Of a DNA stretch of 27,310 bases, positions 2,408-27,310 are shown in pieces; positions within the stretch are counted from its first letter, which is position 1, and each line of letters begins with the position of its first letter. Under the pieces are notes generated by a model. The model saw nothing but the letters and a program-made list of their open reading frames with translations, ran no database searches and was not told the DNA's origin. Where the stretch lies: the IMG/VR virus record IMGVR_UViG_2778261168_000001, one strand, 5' to 3'. Position numbers and translations under genes: made by a program. This DNA is from a virus (Duplodnaviria; Heunggongvirae; Uroviricota; Caudoviricetes).

Positions 2408-3030
2408 TTTTGAATCACCGTTGTTGCATAAGAATAAATAAAAGGGAGTTTTACATATTTCTGGTCAATGGCATCTTTCAGAAAATAGCCTATACCATCA
2501 CCATATTCTGGTATATGAATAGAAAAAACACTGTCCGATACAGTCACGCTCACATCAAAAGTGTGCTGCAACGGCGGGTCTATTCCGTTTTTTCCATGAA
2601 TGAACCGCGCCACACGGCGCTTTAACCAGTCAATGCAGAAATGCGAACCGTCAGCCTTATAAAAATTCCACGTTAATATTCGTTTGAAATAATCATCAGG
2701 GACATACGATGCCTGCCCCGGAACGTAATTCCGCATTGCTGCGTACGGGATCGTATTGTATTCAATGGTATCGTATGCACCGCGCGCAATAGCCTCCTCT
2801 GAAACCTGTAGTAAAGGTCTTTCAACACCGTAAATACCAAGTGCTATCCAGTCCAGCAACTGCCCGGTTATTGATTCCGATGTCCAGCATGGCAATGCCA
2901 GATTGTTGAGCGAATCGAGGTATTCCTGAGCAATTTCATTGTATGCTTCAAAGAACGCAACAACATTCGGATCATCTCTATACTGCACAAACGGATAAGC
3001 AGGAAGTATTTTCTCAGTCAGATATTGCAT
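2404..3030 (-). CDS. Baseplate/tail protein, P2 gpI / Mu gp48 / YmfQ-like by position
   Basis: Track ORF 2404..3138 begins with TTG. First plausible ATG is at 3030 (MQYLTEKILPAYPF...), overlapping the J-like gene end by 17 nt; an ATG at 3087 is an alternative. Position between J-like and fibre matches P2/Mu/e14 order. Confidence 0.5.
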   Translation of the reverse strand: MQYLTEKILPAYPFVQYRDDPNVVAFFEAYNEIAQEYLDSLNNLALPCWTSESITGQLLDWIALGIYGVERPLLQVSEEAIARGAYDTIEYNTIPYAAMRNYVPGQASYVPDDYFKRILTWNFYKADGSHFCIDWLKRRVARFIHGKNGIDPPLQHTFDVSVTVSDSVFSIHIPEYGDGIGYFLKDAIDQKYVKLPFIYSYATTVIQK

Positions 3031-4240
3031 ACTTATTGACCTGAACCTGTGATGCCACCGTCGAAAAATAGGAATAGGTATCGCCATAAACCAGGCTTGT
3101 GTCTTTTGCCGGAAGAACAATATGGCCGTTAATACCAATGCTCACACTGATTGTTGAGATCAACGTCGCATCAACCAGCAATTTTACGGAGCTGGTAAAA
3201 ATATCCTGGATTCGCAGCAGATTTATCGGGTGACCGACTTCAATAGAATTGATGTAATCAGCAACGTTTTGCTGCACAGCCATAGCAATACCCGCCGGAT
3301 CAACATAATCATCAGACACCGTGTTCCAGGTGATTAGCACCATGACGTTTTGTGATGACGGGATAACGAACGGCACCTGATAAACGTCCGGCGAAACGGT
3401 TATTGAAACCGTGCGTTTTTCCACTGCCGCACCGGATGGATTGCTTACATCGTTGGTCAGTTTCGAAATATCCGGTACAGATTTGTAAATCGCATAAGCC
3501 ACATCATACGGATCACCGCCACCAACAACCGCAACCCATTTCCCCAGCGACGACTGCCGGAAAGAAATCAGGTTTTCTCGCACACCGCTTACTGATTTGA
3601 GCATAGCTTTAAAGCAATCCGGTGTTCCCTGCACACCAAACATGCCGGACTCCATGACTTCGGCGCGGTAAGATGCCCACGTTTGCGCCTCCTGACCGGG
3701 CATTCCTGCGGTAAGGTTGGTGCATTTTACAGGCTGGTCTTTGGGTACTGAGGTAATGACCTGCGTCACGGTCCCTTCCGGTACAGCCCATGAGCCTGAC
3801 GTTGTGGCCACACAGTAGACTGGCTCAGTCTGCCCGTTTTCCGGTACCACGGTATCGCGGGAAACCGCATACTGGTAGTTGCCGTCACCGACAACAAATC
3901 CTTTAGGGATACCAAACCCCGGCAACGCCTCAAACACCACGTATACCGCCGTATTTGTACTTAATCCCTTCTGTGCTCCATATATGTTTCCGAGTTGCAT
4001 CAGTAACGGAATATTCGCGCCGTATGGGCTTACGGAGTTAATAAGGTCCACCCGCGCCTGGTCTATTAATGCCAGCGCCCCGACAGCCGTGCTGGCAAGG
4101 TCTGTAATAAGCCCCGCCGGAAGGTTGGCTGTATATCCAGGTACTTTTTCAGCAACTCTGGTGATAAGATTCGCGAGCAAATCATTGGGTGGCGTAGGCT
4201 GCGCACCCGCACTGGTCATAGTAATTGGTATTTCTGACAT
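3014..4240 (-). CDS. Baseplate J-like protein (P2 gpJ / Mu gp47 family)
   Basis: 408 aa; ATG at 4240 with GGAG RBS 5 nt upstream. Size and position upstream of the gpI-like and fibre genes. Confidence 0.65.
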   Translation of the reverse strand: MSEIPITMTSAGAQPTPPNDLLANLITRVAEKVPGYTANLPAGLITDLASTAVGALALIDQARVDLINSVSPYGANIPLLMQLGNIYGAQKGLSTNTAVYVVFEALPGFGIPKGFVVGDGNYQYAVSRDTVVPENGQTEPVYCVATTSGSWAVPEGTVTQVITSVPKDQPVKCTNLTAGMPGQEAQTWASYRAEVMESGMFGVQGTPDCFKAMLKSVSGVRENLISFRQSSLGKWVAVVGGGDPYDVAYAIYKSVPDISKLTNDVSNPSGAAVEKRTVSITVSPDVYQVPFVIPSSQNVMVLITWNTVSDDYVDPAGIAMAVQQNVADYINSIEVGHPINLLRIQDIFTSSVKLLVDATLISTISVSIGINGHIVLPAKDTSLVYGDTYSYFSTVASQVQVNKYAISD

Positions 4241-4280: not shown

Positions 4281-5441
4281 TTATTCAACCTCTTCTAAAC
4301 TGCTCACTCTGGACCCTCGGCGGAAATTATCATCATTTTTAACATACTCGTATGAATCCAGAATCAAACCAGATATGCGAAGTATATCTTCCGGATTAGT
4401 TATATGTATCCTTTTACCATCCGTATCAAGTCGAGCTCGTCTTATTTCATTCAACTGAACTTCACTAAGCGAAATAGGTAAAGTTATAAATGAAGATTTT
4501 TTATCATAAAATCTTAACAGCCATCTATTAGTTTTACCATTCAATAGTACACCGAAATATGACTCAGTATCTTTATATTCTATATTATCTTCTGTTTGTA
4601 TGATTTGTTTTACCCTTTCAAATAGCTCCAATTCTTTGGCTGTGGTTATTATGTTGGGGTTTTCTTCATCAACAATGGCGTTATTAACTTGTGTATCCGT
4701 TGCATCATTTTCTTTAGTTTGCTCTACCGGTTGTGTAGATAGCCCGGAAACCACCATTGCGCTAACAGCGCGCTCAACGGCCTGTTTAACTAATGGAGTC
4801 ACGAACTCAAGAAATCTCTGATTAAGTTGTCTCTCAATATTTGAACGACTAGCAACATATCGAACAAACTCCAGATCAACTTCACGAAGACTAGAACTGA
4901 TTGTTTTAGTAAATGAATTCAAATAAACACTTTCTTCAGCCAGTGTCCGTAAAGCCTCTGGTTTGAATTTATCATAACGAAAACGAAATAATTGTGTAAT
5001 ATCGGAGTGAGTTAGAGAATCCATTCTTAATTTTAAAAACGGCGTTGAATCCATTATGTTTTTTTGTTTCAAATCCGTAAAAAAACGCCATTCAACACCA
5101 TTTGTAATGGCTGATATAGTAACTTCCGGTGTTGAATTAAAATATCTTGATAGCTGTGGGCAGTGATTATCAATTTGTTCTGAAAACGATTTCGCCTCAA
5201 TGAACATCACAGGAACATCATGACAAAATAAAGCGTAATCAACCCGTTCATTAGCCTTAACCCCGGGGAAGTCAGCACTATACTCAGCTTTGACTTTTCT
5301 TGGATCATACGGAGTAAAACCAAGAATATCTAGTAATGGCATAATGAGTGCTTGTTTTGTCGTTTCTTCAGTTGTACAAAACACCCCCATTTTTGCAACA
5401 TGCTCTGTGTGTATTTTTAACTTATTTGCAAAATTTTCCAT
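4281..5441 (-). CDS. Moron-encoded protein with N-terminal HsdR-N-like PD-(D/E)xK nuclease domain and a C-terminal domain of unknown function; candidate phage-exclusion protein
   Basis: Track ORF 4281..5456 (391 aa). ATG at 5441 (MENFANKL...) has a GGAGGAG RBS; the ATG at 5456 has none. N-terminus shows TEETTKQALIMPLLDILGF...ERVDYALF...PVMFIEAKSF...ITNGVEWRFF, the motif set of the type I restriction R-subunit N-terminal nuclease domain (compare EcoKI HsdR ...ADYVLF...VVEAK as recalled). Gene is conspicuously AT-rich by eye relative to flanking tail genes. Confidence 0.55.
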   Translation of the reverse strand: MENFANKLKIHTEHVAKMGVFCTTEETTKQALIMPLLDILGFTPYDPRKVKAEYSADFPGVKANERVDYALFCHDVPVMFIEAKSFSEQIDNHCPQLSRYFNSTPEVTISAITNGVEWRFFTDLKQKNIMDSTPFLKLRMDSLTHSDITQLFRFRYDKFKPEALRTLAEESVYLNSFTKTISSSLREVDLEFVRYVASRSNIERQLNQRFLEFVTPLVKQAVERAVSAMVVSGLSTQPVEQTKENDATDTQVNNAIVDEENPNIITTAKELELFERVKQIIQTEDNIEYKDTESYFGVLLNGKTNRWLLRFYDKKSSFITLPISLSEVQLNEIRRARLDTDGKRIHITNPEDILRISGLILDSYEYVKNDDNFRRGSRVSSLEEVE

Positions 5442-5469
5442 GCTTGTCTCCTCCATGGTTACAATCTGT

Positions 5470-6188: not shown

Positions 6189-6902
6189 TTAACCCGGATT
6201 TGGTTGCTTCGACGTGATCGTGCTGCCGCCGCTTTGAACGCCAGTCACATCGTGGCTGTGGCCGCTGGCGCTCACGCCGTTGATAATTGCATCCTTCTCG
6301 ACCTTAAGAGGACCAATCAGCGAAGCGGTTGTATCCTTCATCTGTGCTTCGTCTTGGACGATTGGACCGTTCAGGTGAATTTTCCCGTTCAGGAAAATAT
6401 CTTCAGCCTCGAGGTAAACAGCTTTCGACTTTTGCCTGATTTCTTCCGGAGCCACCGTTACCGAGCTACTGCCGTCCTCTGTTTTGAGGATCGCGCCATC
6501 CGGACCGTACAAAACGATTTTTTGCGGATCTTCGTCGGACCAGTCCTTGTTTGCCAGTGGCACGAAAAACAGTGGAGTGAGCGACATCGAGTAAGAGAGC
6601 GTCGCCATACCGGTTCCCAATCCGGACACTCCGCGCAGTGATACATCAGCGGCAATTGTTACTCCTCGATCGCCCGGCTGTATCGGGTAACGAATATACG
6701 GGAATGTGGCGACAGGGATTGTTATCTGCGGAAAGTTGATCCCCTCCGGCAGCATATCAAACTGAACTGTCACTATCTGCCCGCTGACATCGACAACATG
6801 GCAGGGCAATTCACGGCCTTTAAGCTCGGCTTGCTGGTTACCAGAACTGGTCATCATCTCTGACAGCGTTCGGAGAAACGGTATTTTTTGAGCGTTTGAC
6901 AT
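6189..6902 (-). CDS. Baseplate central spike protein (P2 gpV / Mu gp45-like)
   Basis: 237 aa; ATG at 6902 overlaps the upstream stop (TAATG). C-terminal Gly/Ser-rich tip contains an HSH motif (..SGHSHDVTGVQSGG..), as in iron-binding spike apex domains. Position after the hub-like gene. Confidence 0.5.
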   Translation of the reverse strand: MSNAQKIPFLRTLSEMMTSSGNQQAELKGRELPCHVVDVSGQIVTVQFDMLPEGINFPQITIPVATFPYIRYPIQPGDRGVTIAADVSLRGVSGLGTGMATLSYSMSLTPLFFVPLANKDWSDEDPQKIVLYGPDGAILKTEDGSSSVTVAPEEIRQKSKAVYLEAEDIFLNGKIHLNGPIVQDEAQMKDTTASLIGPLKVEKDAIINGVSASGHSHDVTGVQSGGSTITSKQPNPG

Positions 6903-23330: not shown

Positions 23331-23582
23331 TTAATCCTGATTTTTATCCACCCTGAGTAGTTCGCGCAGGGCAAAGGCATCCCCTTTTCTGGCAAGCTTA
23401 AACAATGCCGCTCGTAGCTCGGCTTCACCTTTCGCTCTGCCCTTACGGATGGACGCATAAAAATTTGTCATTGCTTCCCGATTTTCTTTCAGTCGGTTCA
23501 GATCAACATCCAGAACGTCAGCGATTTGTTGTGCAGTCATCCGGCACGCTGCCAGAGACTCGACTTTCGAATACGGAATCAT
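23331..23582 (-). CDS. Small HTH DNA-binding protein upstream of the packaging genes
   Basis: 83 aa; ATG at 23582 with GGGGGTGA RBS; stop is 3 nt before the next start. MTAQQIADVLDVDLNRLKEN is HTH-like. Confidence 0.4.
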   Translation of the reverse strand: MIPYSKVESLAACRMTAQQIADVLDVDLNRLKENREAMTNFYASIRKGRAKGEAELRAALFKLARKGDAFALRELLRVDKNQD

Positions 23583-24450
23583 TTGTCACCCCCATTGATA
23601 TGCAGGGTGTCTTCTTCCTGTATTTTTCGTGAATGATTTTTACTGCAGCGTTGTTCCAGGTGACCTGATGGTGAATGCGTTTATGGCTGGCGCCCATCAG
23701 GGATATTTTTACGCACGACGGCGCATACATGACGGAGTAAAAACTTTTAACGTAGGTTCCGGAATCCAGATACAGTTCGGTCATTCCGCCGCTGTTTTTC
23801 TGCGTCTGTTTCTGCCCTAACTGGACAGCACCAATCGTCATAAACAACTCACCACGGCGACCGAGATTCGTGTACGTATTCACATCCTCGTTAATGCGCC
23901 CCATGAATGAGAACGGTCGATCAACCGAACAGATAAAGCTGTTCATTGCCTTGCGTTTCACCCACGAAGCATGGCCGCCATTGTCACCAAGAAAATCCCC
24001 GCCCTGCGACATAGCGATGGAAAGAGCAGGTATTGATTCGTAGTACGCCAGCATTTCAGAAAGGATCGCATCCAGTTTCCTTATCGGAAAATAGGCCTGG
24101 TCATAGTTGCGATCCACCCGAAACTGGAACTCGTGATAATCATCATCGAGCTGAATGAAGTATTTACACCCGACCAGTTTTGCCAGGTCGAAACAGGCAT
24201 TACGGGCGTAAAAAATTGAGCGGCGGTCACAGAAATTATCGGCTTCGTCAAAACGACTGGCGATATCGGCTTTGGAAAACACCAGCACCTGTTCACCAAA
24301 TTCAGCCATGTATTGATGCCGTGTCTTATCTTCATCATCAACAACGATAAAAATTTTCCCGGTATAGCCAGCACGACGCAACGTCCGGTAAGTCAGAACT
24401 TTGTCCGGTCGCCCGTGAGTCAGAATAAAGGCGCAAAAATCATCACGCAT
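23518..24450 (-). CDS. Soluble GT-A-fold (family 2-like) nucleotide-sugar transferase-like protein
   Basis: Track start 24471; the ATG at 24450 (MRDDFCAF..) has a very strong GAGGAGGAGG RBS. N-terminus FILTHGRPDKVL...GKIFIVVDDED and a later FIQLDDDYHEF (DxD-type) motif match the GT-A N-terminal signature. No obvious transmembrane segments. Confidence 0.45.
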   Translation of the reverse strand: MRDDFCAFILTHGRPDKVLTYRTLRRAGYTGKIFIVVDDEDKTRHQYMAEFGEQVLVFSKADIASRFDEADNFCDRRSIFYARNACFDLAKLVGCKYFIQLDDDYHEFQFRVDRNYDQAYFPIRKLDAILSEMLAYYESIPALSIAMSQGGDFLGDNGGHASWVKRKAMNSFICSVDRPFSFMGRINEDVNTYTNLGRRGELFMTIGAVQLGQKQTQKNSGGMTELYLDSGTYVKSFYSVMYAPSCVKISLMGASHKRIHHQVTWNNAAVKIIHEKYRKKTPCISMGVTNDSVFESRVSGSVPDDCTTNR

Positions 24451-25234
24451 ATTCCTCCTCCTCACCACCATGCATGATCTCCACCATGCGCTGCGTCATC
24501 CGGACAAATCCATTTTCAATAGCCTGCTGATAATCAATGATCACCAGCGCCGACTCCTCGAAAAAACACTGAATTTCAGCGGGGGCGTGAGCGTAATAGT
24601 CCGCAATTCTGCTGAAATTAAACACCGTGTGACGTTCTGCCGCACACAAGAGGAACTTCTCAATATCAGGCTCAAGGGACGCCGAACGTATCCGGCTGAT
24701 CAACTCCTGAGTTTTCGTATCGTCGTACAGTTCACTGATATCTGGTTTATCGCCCGACGGCTCATAAACAGGCGTATCAATTTTCGTCGTGTACGGCTCC
24801 TCCTCATTTCCTGTACCGGGCAAAACATCCGTCAACAGTTCATCAATTTCTGTCGGGATGAAGCCTGTCAGGGAGACATCAAAATCAGCATTGATTAGGT
24901 CCGACAGCTCCATCCGCAACAGATCTTCATCCCAGCCAGCATTCATCGGCAGGCGATTATCTGCCAGGCGGTACGCCTTTTTCTGCTCATCCGTCAGGCC
25001 AGACAGAACAATGACCGGAACAGAATCCATTTTGAGCATTTCAGCCGCCATAACACGACCGTGACCCGCAATAATTTCGCCCTTTTCGTCAATCAGCACC
25101 GGATTAGTCCAGCCGAATTGCTTAATACTTTCTACCAGTTGTGCCACCTGCTCAGTACTGTGCGTCCTGGCGTTGTGCGCATACGGTGACAATTCTTGTA
25201 ATGGGCGATAGACTATCTTTAATTTCTCGCTCAT
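24443..25234 (-). CDS. ParB-like nuclease domain protein
   Basis: 263 aa; ATG at 25234. N-terminus YRPLQELSPYAHNARTHSTEQVAQLVESIKQFGWTNPVLIDEKGEIIAGHGR contains the ParB/sulfiredoxin-fold GxxR box (AGHGR). Overlaps the next gene start, so the two are co-operonic. Confidence 0.65.
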   Translation of the reverse strand: MSEKLKIVYRPLQELSPYAHNARTHSTEQVAQLVESIKQFGWTNPVLIDEKGEIIAGHGRVMAAEMLKMDSVPVIVLSGLTDEQKKAYRLADNRLPMNAGWDEDLLRMELSDLINADFDVSLTGFIPTEIDELLTDVLPGTGNEEEPYTTKIDTPVYEPSGDKPDISELYDDTKTQELISRIRSASLEPDIEKFLLCAAERHTVFNFSRIADYYAHAPAEIQCFFEESALVIIDYQQAIENGFVRMTQRMVEIMHGGEEEEYA

Positions 25235-25371: not shown

Positions 25372-26829
25372 TTAGGAGCGCCAAAAAAAACCTGAAAACA
25401 ATATAATAACAGGATAAATTTCAAGGCGACCAAGAATCATAGCTATGCACATTAAACATTTTGCAATGTCATTAAGCACTCCGAATGACGATGCAGTAGC
25501 CCCAAAACCTAATCCCATATTATTAATACATGCAGCCACTGTTGCAAATGATGTAAGAAAATCATATCCCATACCATTTAACACCAGTATAAAAAACACC
25601 GTGAAGAGAGTATAAAGAAAAAAGAAACTCCATACAGACCTCATTACACGATCTGTAACTATCTTCCCTCCTACATTTACACTCAACAACGCTCTGGGAT
25701 GAGAAAGCTGATTTATCTCGTGTTTGCTTTGTTTGAAAAGTATAAGAAATCGAAGTGACTTAATTCCACCACAAGTTGAACCTATACATCCCCCAAAGAA
25801 ACTTGACAACAGCAAAAACACTATCGTGTGCGTGGGCCAACTTGCATAATCCTGCGTAGCTAAACCATTATCAGTGAGCATGGAGCTGGCAAGAAAAAAC
25901 GAATGAATAAAACTTCCATGCAAGTCATACATACCTATATGCCAGACCTGGAAAGAGGTAACAATGATCACCCCTAAGGCTATTAACAGAAAGAAACGAA
26001 GTTCAATATCTCTGATTAAAGGTTTTATCGTTTTCCTGCTAATAACAATATACCAAAGAGTGAAGTTGAAAGCCGATAGCAGGGAAAAAGAACCAGCCAC
26101 CAGCTCAACCAAATAGTTATTAAAATATCCGATACTCTCGCTATGAGTTGAGAAACCACCAAGCGAAACTGTGGAAATCCCGTGACAAATAGCATCAAAC
26201 AAAGGCATTCCTGCAAGTCTATAACAGACAATACAAGCAATACCTAATAAAGAATAAGTTATCCACAGTGTCCGTGACGTATCGGCCAGGCGGGGAGTGA
26301 GTTTGTCATCCTTAAATGGCCCCGGCATTTCTGACTGATAAAGCTTTGCACCACCAATACCCAATAATGGCAATACAGCAACCGCCAGAACAATAACTCC
26401 TAAACCACCTATAAAATTTAACTGTGACCGATAGTACAAATATGCCCGAGGTAATGAACTAACATCATCAATTACAGTTGCTCCTGTTGTTGTTATTCCA
26501 GAAACCCCTTCAAACAGAGCATCAATGAACGTTAAATTAAGTTCTGAGTCAATCCATAAAGGGAATGCACTAATAACAGAAAACAAAATCCAAAACATTA
26601 CAATTATAATAAACCCATCACGGGTACGTAATTGAATGCCAGATTTCTTAGTTGTATACCACGCTCCGCCACCAATGCAAAAAAATATAACGAAAGTTAT
26701 AAAGAAAACGAACAGGCTTTTTTCTTTATAAAACAATGCTACAACCATTGGTGGCAACATTGAAAGACTATAGAGCCAAACCAGGAACCCACACATATGA
26801 GTAACAACTCTTACATGAGATGTATTCAT
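25372..26829 (-). CDS. trkG: TrkG/TrkH-family potassium uptake transporter (prophage cargo)
   Basis: 485 aa from ATG at 26829 (MNTSHVRVV..); the track's 491-aa version starts at TTG 26847, which has an AAGGTGG SD. Multiple membrane helices with the reiterated glycine-containing pore motifs of TrkH/KtrB (FCIGGGAWY, TTGATV, NFIGGLGV, STVSLGGFS, GGCIGSTCGG, INNMGLGFGAT). Gene is visibly AT-rich. Rz/Rz1-trkG is the Rac prophage arrangement as I recall it. Confidence 0.85.
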   Translation of the reverse strand: MNTSHVRVVTHMCGFLVWLYSLSMLPPMVVALFYKEKSLFVFFITFVIFFCIGGGAWYTTKKSGIQLRTRDGFIIIVMFWILFSVISAFPLWIDSELNLTFIDALFEGVSGITTTGATVIDDVSSLPRAYLYYRSQLNFIGGLGVIVLAVAVLPLLGIGGAKLYQSEMPGPFKDDKLTPRLADTSRTLWITYSLLGIACIVCYRLAGMPLFDAICHGISTVSLGGFSTHSESIGYFNNYLVELVAGSFSLLSAFNFTLWYIVISRKTIKPLIRDIELRFFLLIALGVIIVTSFQVWHIGMYDLHGSFIHSFFLASSMLTDNGLATQDYASWPTHTIVFLLLSSFFGGCIGSTCGGIKSLRFLILFKQSKHEINQLSHPRALLSVNVGGKIVTDRVMRSVWSFFFLYTLFTVFFILVLNGMGYDFLTSFATVAACINNMGLGFGATASSFGVLNDIAKCLMCIAMILGRLEIYPVIILFSGFFWRS

Positions 26830-26846
26830 ATCTAAATATTCTTTCA

Positions 26847-26900
26847 ATTATAACCACCTTGCTGCAATATTATGATTATACTGTATAAAATTTAACTCCT
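26847..26900 (-). promoter_or_regulatory. AT-rich upstream region of trkG with two perfect TATAAT hexamers (candidate promoter)
   Basis: Minus-strand TATAAT at 26880..26875 and 26852..26847; no convincing -35 found. Confidence 0.25.
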
Positions 26901-26966
26901 CTTAGATCTTACTTCACTGTTCCTTATGAAACAATCATCAAAATGAATCATATTGTAGTTAAGATT

Positions 26967-27263
26967 TTACTTTAAACACTGCTCGGTTATGTATTGCTGA
27001 GCACCTTCAAGTTGGGCCTGCATCATTACCAGTCGTTCCCGGAGGGTGAAATAATCCCGTTCAGCGGTGTCTGCCAGTCGGGGGGAGGCTGCATTATCCA
27101 CGCCGGAGGCGGTGGTGGCTTCACGCACTGACTGACAGACTGCTTTGATGTGCAACCGACGACGACCAGCGGCAACATCATCACGCAGAGCATCATTTTC
27201 AGCTTTCGCATCAGCTAACTCCTTCGTGTATTTTGATCCTACCCACGTAATATGGACACAGGC
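26967..27263 (-). pseudogene. rzpR: Rz-like i-spanin gene fragment (C-terminal part only; N-terminal membrane anchor missing)
   Basis: Translation ...KYTKELADAKAENDALRDDVAAGRRRLHIKAVCQSVREATTASGVDNAASPRLADTAERDYFTLRERLVMMQAQLEGAQQYITEQC matches the lambda Rz C-terminal two-thirds as recalled. The frame hits an in-frame TAG at 27266..27264, and the residues upstream of KYTKEL diverge from Rz. Confidence 0.55.
27026..27211 (-). CDS. rzoR: Rz1-like o-spanin outer-membrane lipoprotein
   Basis: 61 aa, ATG at 27211: MRKLKMMLCVMMLPLVVVGCTSKQ... with lipobox LVVVGC and a proline-rich segment (KPPPPPAWIMQPPPDWQTP), embedded in the +1 frame of the Rz-like ORF. Near-identical to lambda Rz1 as recalled. 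Confidence 0.8.
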   Translation of the reverse strand: MRKLKMMLCVMMLPLVVVGCTSKQSVSQCVKPPPPPAWIMQPPPDWQTPLNGIISPSGNDW

Positions 27264-27310
27264 CTAAGCGAGGTTCTTGTTTTCAAATTGTTCCGGACTG
27301 AGGCCGCCAC

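Follow-up and report, generated by a model that had tools for sequence, protein, structure and literature searches.

The closest described systems to the locus studied here are the Rz/Rz1 spanin genes of phage lambda, the rzpR/rzoR genes of the Rac prophage in Escherichia coli K-12 and the insertion sequence IS3 of E. coli. Lambda's lysis genes are arranged in the order holin-endolysin-Rz/Rz1, with Rz1 located in the +1 frame of Rz. Lambda Rz comprises a transmembrane domain (residues 1-24) and two coiled-coils, CC1 (residues 27-87) and CC2 (residues 121-150) (PMC5295617). Nonsense mutations recovered throughout the periplasmic domain, as well as mutations engineered at positions 151 and 152, are lysis-defective; the last residue (R153) alone is dispensable (PMC5295617). 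Loss of either spanin subunit leads to spherical cells in which the outer membrane stays intact (PMC5295617).

In K-12 Rac, the pseudogene rzpR and the embedded rzoR are found directly upstream of the potassium transporter gene trkG. Rz is kept from about codon 8 to its end. Its start codon, the endolysin and the holin are missing because a deletion joins Rz to a remnant of ydaW. In MG1655 (L001, 3440-3620) the junction of rzpR with the truncated DUF1627 gene (ydaW) lies at the extreme 5' end, so that nearly the whole Rz frame survives without a start codon. The third system, IS3, belongs to the IS3 family; it is 1258 bp long, has TG...CA ends, carries orfA and orfB with a programmed -1 frameshift and duplicates 3 bp of its target.

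The Rz fragment at the edge of the window

The stretch of DNA analysed here (the window) has a length of 27,310 nt. By an exact-protein look-up of its ParB-like gene, the window was identified as the reverse complement of the entire contig NTPE01000045.1 (27,310 bp) from the draft assembly GCA_002463665.1. What is seen at its two ends thus reflects where the assembly broke at repeats. Towards the high-numbered end of the window the following features are found:

25372..26829, minus strand: trkG, Trk potassium transporter of 485 aa, a cargo gene directly downstream of the lysis cassette (RefSeq annotation)
26967..27230, minus strand: codons 68-154 and the stop of the i-spanin gene Rz, a 3' fragment and one half of a split pseudogene (Pfam PF03245)
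27026..27211, minus strand: intact gene of the o-spanin lipoprotein Rz1, 61 aa, in the +1 frame of Rz (PF06085)
27231..27233: the 3-bp target-site duplication, one of its two copies; codon K67, which reads AAA in Rz sense and TTT on the plus strand; AAA is shared by both flanks
27234..27310, minus strand: right end of IS3, 77 nt, with 77/77 identity to annotated IS3 ends
about 27234-27272, minus strand: terminal inverted repeat IRR of IS3, part of the right end
27264-27266, minus strand: TAG stop of the orfB transposase, preceded by its last 14 codons, GGLSPEQFENKNLA (minus-strand translation)

A sequence-only reading of this region had noticed that the Rz-like frame matches lambda Rz only from KYTKELADAK onward and that it is closed by an in-frame TAG at 27266..27264. 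Both observations hold. In the Rz frame, the minus strand of 26967-27310 translates into GGLSPEQFENKNLA*ACVHITWVGSKYTKELADAKAEN...ITEQCLK* (asterisks mark stops), and the fragment 26967-27233 matches Pfam PF03245 with E=6.8e-41 over profile positions 39-125 of 126 only. By sequence, this fragment as well as the rebuilt protein described below belong to the PF03245 Rz family. The fragment itself lacks a start codon and a transmembrane domain; the first start that could be used in its frame is a TTG at 27155. A complete Rz gene, in which a start and an N-terminal transmembrane domain are contiguous with the periplasmic coiled-coils, is thus not present in the window.

The sequence upstream of the fragment belongs to IS3. 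Positions 27234-27310 are identical in 77 of 77 nt to the right ends of IS3 copies at three independent loci (strains MB22, SCZE5 and L73), where the CDSs are annotated as 'IS3-like element IS3 family transposase'. The transposase CDS annotated in MB22 stops 30 nt before the end of the IS, at the equivalent of window position 27264. The in-frame TAG is therefore the stop codon of IS3 orfB and GGLSPEQFENKNLA the C-terminus of the transposase. When 26800-27310 was compared with complete E. coli genomes by megablast, K-12 and many others matched with 99.8% identity only up to window position 27238; where a record extended over the last 72 nt, this was through a separate second piece that is annotated as IS3 transposase. 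Since the Rz frame is closed upstream by the orfB stop and the transmembrane part is located beyond IS3 (see below), we consider the window fragment a disrupted gene and not a functional family member.

The divergence from intact Rz and from K-12 begins precisely at the terminal TG of IS3. Intact Rz (SCZE5) and K-12 both run on as ...GTGTATTTTGCATCGAGC, whereas the window reads ...GTGTATTT|TGATCCTACCC from 27234; in the alignment with K-12 and SCZE5 the window switches to ...GTGTATTT|TGATCCTACCCACG. The similarity break is exact and the junction is therefore 27233|27234, not a scar near 27240..27270 as had been assumed before.

The earlier assignment of a complete Rz1 with the lipobox LVVVGC was also correct. 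The ORF MRKLKMMLCVMMLPLVVVGC...PPPPP... matches Pfam PF06085 with E=2e-19 and has the properties of Rz1: a signal peptide with a lipobox cysteine, a proline-rich mature part and a position in the +1 frame of Rz. Its product does not differ from that of K-12, which the RefSeq record used names rzoD; to lambda Rz1 the identity is 98.2% over 57 aa. The ribosome-binding site AAGGAG of Rz1 (27219-27224) is kept, at a distance of 10 nt from the IS3 end.

The 5' half of Rz and the origin of the junction

An IS3 insertion with a 3-bp duplication predicts a 67-aa Rz stub that ends with ...ALDAK and is followed by a TGA from the IS3 left end. This exact protein was found in the protein collection, and its look-up led to the end of contig NTPE01000002.1 (369,916 bp, locus L021) of the same assembly. 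Here the order is Q-like antiterminator (DUF1133), two TolA-like genes, holin, lysozyme, 5' part of Rz and IS3 end, including the following features:

end of NTPE01000002.1: holin (71 aa) and lysozyme (165 aa), both intact
L021:6001-6201: Rz codons 1-67 with the start codon, the transmembrane anchor and the first part of CC1
terminus of NTPE01000002.1: left end of IS3, 77 nt, TGATCTTACCCAGCAATAGTGG...CATGACAAAAACA, with the orfA ATG

The last 77 nt of this contig occur exactly in the IS3 left ends of strains LR-46 and MB22. The contig ends with ...GATGCAAAA|TGATCTTACCC, and the window in Rz sense reads ...GGTAGGATCA|AAATACACG, while intact Rz has GATGCAAAATACACG. The left flank thus ends with GATGCAAAA and the right flank starts with AAATACACG, such that both contain the AAA that intact alleles carry as a single copy. 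Both flanks map to positions 9597-9599 of the reference cassette (L013). Joining them minus one AAA yields a 465-nt ORF. The 154-aa protein that it encodes shows an identity of 95.4% to lambda Rz (over 152 aa) and of 99.4% to the intact Rz of L015. L015 is a contig from another sample; over 12.8 kb it matches the window with 99.8% identity, and its 154-aa Rz is uninterrupted at the site.

The two contig ends also agree with what is expected for IS3. They provide terminal inverted repeats 5'-TG...CA-3' that match known IS3 ends, as well as a short 3-bp direct target-site duplication. Of the IS3 copy in GCA_002463665.1 the start of orfA (on NTPE01000002.1) and the end of orfB (in the window) are visible, while the interior is collapsed in the draft. 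The other IS3 copies with identical ends are 1258 bp long in every complete copy measured and their annotation includes a programmed frameshift. At either end the terminal 77 nt, like the last 14 transposase codons with the stop and the target duplication, are those of E. coli IS3; no difference is detectable over the readable portion, which consists of the two 77-nt ends only.

We thus consider it very probable that the feature at the window edge is a simple insertion of IS3 after codon 67 of Rz in a Rac-like prophage, and a single insertion is by far the simplest reading of the matching duplication and orientation. A copy of IS3 would have transposed into the i-spanin gene inside coiled-coil 1, oriented like the lysis genes, and would have duplicated the 3-bp target AAA. 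From the matching duplication and the orientation of the ends we infer that one IS3 links NTPE01000002.1 and NTPE01000045.1. Both contigs reach exactly 77 nt into IS3, which points to an assembler overlap into a multicopy repeat: at each junction the short-read assembler would have halted 77 nt inside the element, so that the Rz 5' half, endolysin and holin would have been placed at the end of the second contig. What the window shows is limited to Rz1, the 3' half of Rz and the right end of IS3, because the assembly stops inside the multicopy IS3.

These data change the previous interpretation of the locus. That Rz is disrupted in the window stands, but its N-terminal anchor is not absent: it is found on NTPE01000002.1 across IS3. 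An intact Rz start with a transmembrane segment just past the window, which had been named as evidence against a truncation, does exist, but IS3 intervenes. The gene is therefore split, not truncated. The holin and endolysin that had been suggested to be sought beyond 27310 are both intact on NTPE01000002.1, next to the Rz 5' half.

The sequence-only reading had favoured a deletion or recombination junction, or a module boundary at which trkG-proximal sequence was joined. On this view the Rz 5' end, and perhaps also the lysis genes upstream of it, would have been lost through a deletion, illegitimate recombination or a module boundary. K-12 Rac is an example: its rzpR loses similarity to Rz near codon 7 and abuts the truncated DUF1627 gene (ydaW), and holin and endolysin are missing. 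Strains FT130 and 1919D3 moreover have IS3 in the cassette with unrelated far-side sequence and no target duplication, consistent with IS-associated deletions. Yet the divergent 77 nt are neither phage nor host DNA; they are the terminus of IS3, with 100% identity to three copies. In the assembly of the window itself, the left end of IS3 is bordered at the same AAA by the Rz 5' half, with endolysin and holin also present. The proposed alignment to lambda and K-12 Rac, which again gave an intact Rz1, placed the break point in Rz at a position different from that of K-12 rzpR. A loss of the Rz 5' end by deletion, recombination or module exchange is thus extremely improbable. The specific lesion of K-12 Rac, i.e. 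Rz fused near codon 7 to the ydaW remnant without holin and endolysin, is ruled out by the other break point, the IS3 beyond it and the presence of both genes in the assembly.

Alternatively, the two junctions could stem from two IS3 copies, either with extra DNA between them in a composite arrangement or parted by a later IS3-IS3 recombination, e.g. an inversion, that separated the Rz halves. The draft collapses all IS3 copies such that the connectivity across the element is unseen, and IS3-associated rearrangements at the lysis cassette occur in other strains. The matching 3-bp duplication together with the consistent orientation of the ends is, however, what a single simple insertion predicts, and a later rearrangement would be an additional, unsupported event. 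We consider two copies highly improbable, and also with two copies the junction in the window would originate from an IS3 insertion. Overall, the IS3 insertion and the Rz gene that it hit are both canonical, and what is seen at the contig end is already known biology. Literature searches found no paper on the particular insertion of the window. The 37-nt Rz/IS3 junction had no exact match in a scan of a species-representative genome collection, and the exact junction of the window was absent from the complete RefSeq E. coli genomes searched.

IS3 at other sites of the cassette

In complete E. coli genomes, IS3 elements of 1258 bp were found at at least eight other sites of the lysis cassette next to trkG, all in some 0.7 kb of endolysin and Rz sequence (loci L002, L003, L004, L020 and L046-L050). 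The site finding favoured IS3 elements in one orientation. The insertions, with positions given in the coordinates of the L013 reference cassette, were:

VTB97585v: endolysin, 8954-8956, duplication CAA
HeN100: endolysin, 9013-9015, duplication GTC
1919D3: endolysin, about 9058, far side unrelated, no duplication
SCZE5: endolysin, 9208-9210, duplication CTT
strain 1500: endolysin, 9302-9304, duplication ATC
FT130: endolysin, position not mapped, recT side, no duplication
L73: Rz, 9472, abuts a second, partial IS3
MB22: Rz/Rz1, 9639-9642, duplication GTTC
LR-46: Rz, 9597-9599, duplication AAA, opposite orientation

For the simple insertions the target duplications comprised 3 bp at five sites and 4 bp in MB22. 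The unrelated far side in FT130 and 1919D3 suggests an IS-associated deletion.

LR-46 (NZ_AP027537.1) carries its 1258-bp IS3 at exactly the same AAA of Rz as the window, also with a 3-bp duplication. It differs from the window in the opposite orientation of IS3, another Rz allele, a lambda-family holin and a GH24 endolysin. The insertion in LR-46 is therefore an independent event, and the Rz AAA was struck twice, in opposite orientations, in the lineage of the window and in LR-46.

Two apparent signs of further Rz lesions were rejected. The 67-aa length of the stub is shared by several allelic forms in the protein collection, and these many 'partial Rz' proteins could have been taken for a strong hot spot. 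Reading of the contigs did not support this: most of the forms (L022-L038) are contig breaks in which the sequence continues as ...GCAAAATA, i.e. native Rz and not IS3, and the form at L031 is due to a scaffold gap of Ns. The contigs read for the form with the lambda allele (L039-L044) are ENA metagenome contigs, of which the inspected one, L039, has a stop codon at position 68. Among the contigs read, real IS3 insertions at the Rz site of the window were present only in the window's assembly and in LR-46. Similarly, four loci with only Rz1 in the gene tables (L006, L009, L012 and L016) all have intact 154-aa Rz ORFs; Rz is missing from the tables because of an indexing artefact and not because of decay.

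One explanation for the recurrent insertions is that the trkG-adjacent lysis cassette of Rac-like prophages is a preferred or positively selected target of IS3, which we regard as a tentative and rather unlikely proposal. The recurrence could arise from a target preference, or from selection that has repeatedly favoured loss of lysis, with the prophage domesticated and trkG kept. Plain tolerance of insertions in prophage DNA is the other of the three options.

Consequences for lysis and state of the prophage

With the Rz halves joined, the locus can be compared to its relatives as a whole. The gene order holin-endolysin-Rz/Rz1 is that of lambda. In contrast to lambda, IS3 splits Rz after codon 67, trkG and not bor comes after the cassette, and the holin is of the type Phage_holin_2_1 (PF04971, 71 aa; family essD in RefSeq) where lambda has S. 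With K-12 Rac the locus shares the position of Rz/Rz1 directly upstream of trkG and a DNA identity of 99.8% over 439 nt. K-12 Rac, however, has no IS3 at Rz, whereas the prophage of the window keeps all lysis genes and full virion genes and is broken only by IS3. Many Rac-like prophages encode exactly the TrkG protein of the window (Pfam PF02386, TrkH) downstream of holin-lysozyme-Rz.

The insertion after codon 67 falls into coiled-coil 1, and the i-spanin should therefore be null; by analogy to the lambda mutants the IS3 insertion should abolish its function. The product would be a 67-aa Rz stub that ends at a TGA provided by the first bases of IS3. From lambda genetics one would expect that induced cells round up without rupture of the outer membrane. 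The earlier suggestion that the prophage may be lysis-defective is in this respect plausible as an impairment of lysis. Judged from their coding sequences, holin, endolysin and Rz1 are intact. Rz1 and trkG would now be located downstream of the IS, and late transcripts would have to cross the element to reach them. A promoter scan found no hybrid outward promoter at the IS3/Rz1 junction; 26700-27310 contained two promoter-like sites, which is no more than expected from shuffled sequence.

The rest of the window holds an apparently complete packaging, head and contractile-tail module, with genes for terminase, portal, a major-head-like protein, sheath, baseplate, tail fibre and tail-fibre assembly. 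The prophage of the window is thus much less decayed than K-12 Rac. The myovirus-like virion module, which adjoins the lambdoid lysis cassette and trkG and includes genes for tail sheath, baseplate J and baseplate hub (12053-13390, 3014-4240 and 6902-7909, all minus strand), is only about 95% identical to its best matches in complete E. coli genomes, and the top-ranked E. coli matches stop short of trkG. The trkG/Rz end shares 99.8% identity with K-12 Rac, which makes the prophage a mosaic.

Three further genes were noted in the window. Between the baseplate-J-like gene and other tail genes, 4281-5456 (minus strand) encodes a 391-aa protein with type I restriction enzyme R N-terminal domains (PF04313/PF13588; PHROG 4225, 'endonuclease'), which may be a cargo or defence-type gene within the tail module. 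The ParB/Srx-like gene at 24443-25234 (minus strand) is full length with 263 aa; of this gene K-12 keeps an 87-aa remnant, ynaK. In the window a TAGT-family gene comes next, at 23518-24471 (minus strand; PF20691; PHROG 842, annotated as glucosyltransferase), and then the terminase genes.

For annotation, the locus should be scored as a complete holin-endolysin-Rz1 set with an IS3-split Rz. What appeared to be a 'decayed, truncated' lysis gene at the window edge is corrected to the insertion of a mobile element, together with a repeat at which the contig breaks, and the window edge does not demonstrate a deletion of the lysis module. In contrast to the ancient remnant in K-12 Rac, the prophage has probably either lost its activity recently or is impaired in lysis only in part. 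Together with the insertions in other strains, the recurrence of IS3 in the cassette provides a small data point on how prophages are disarmed.
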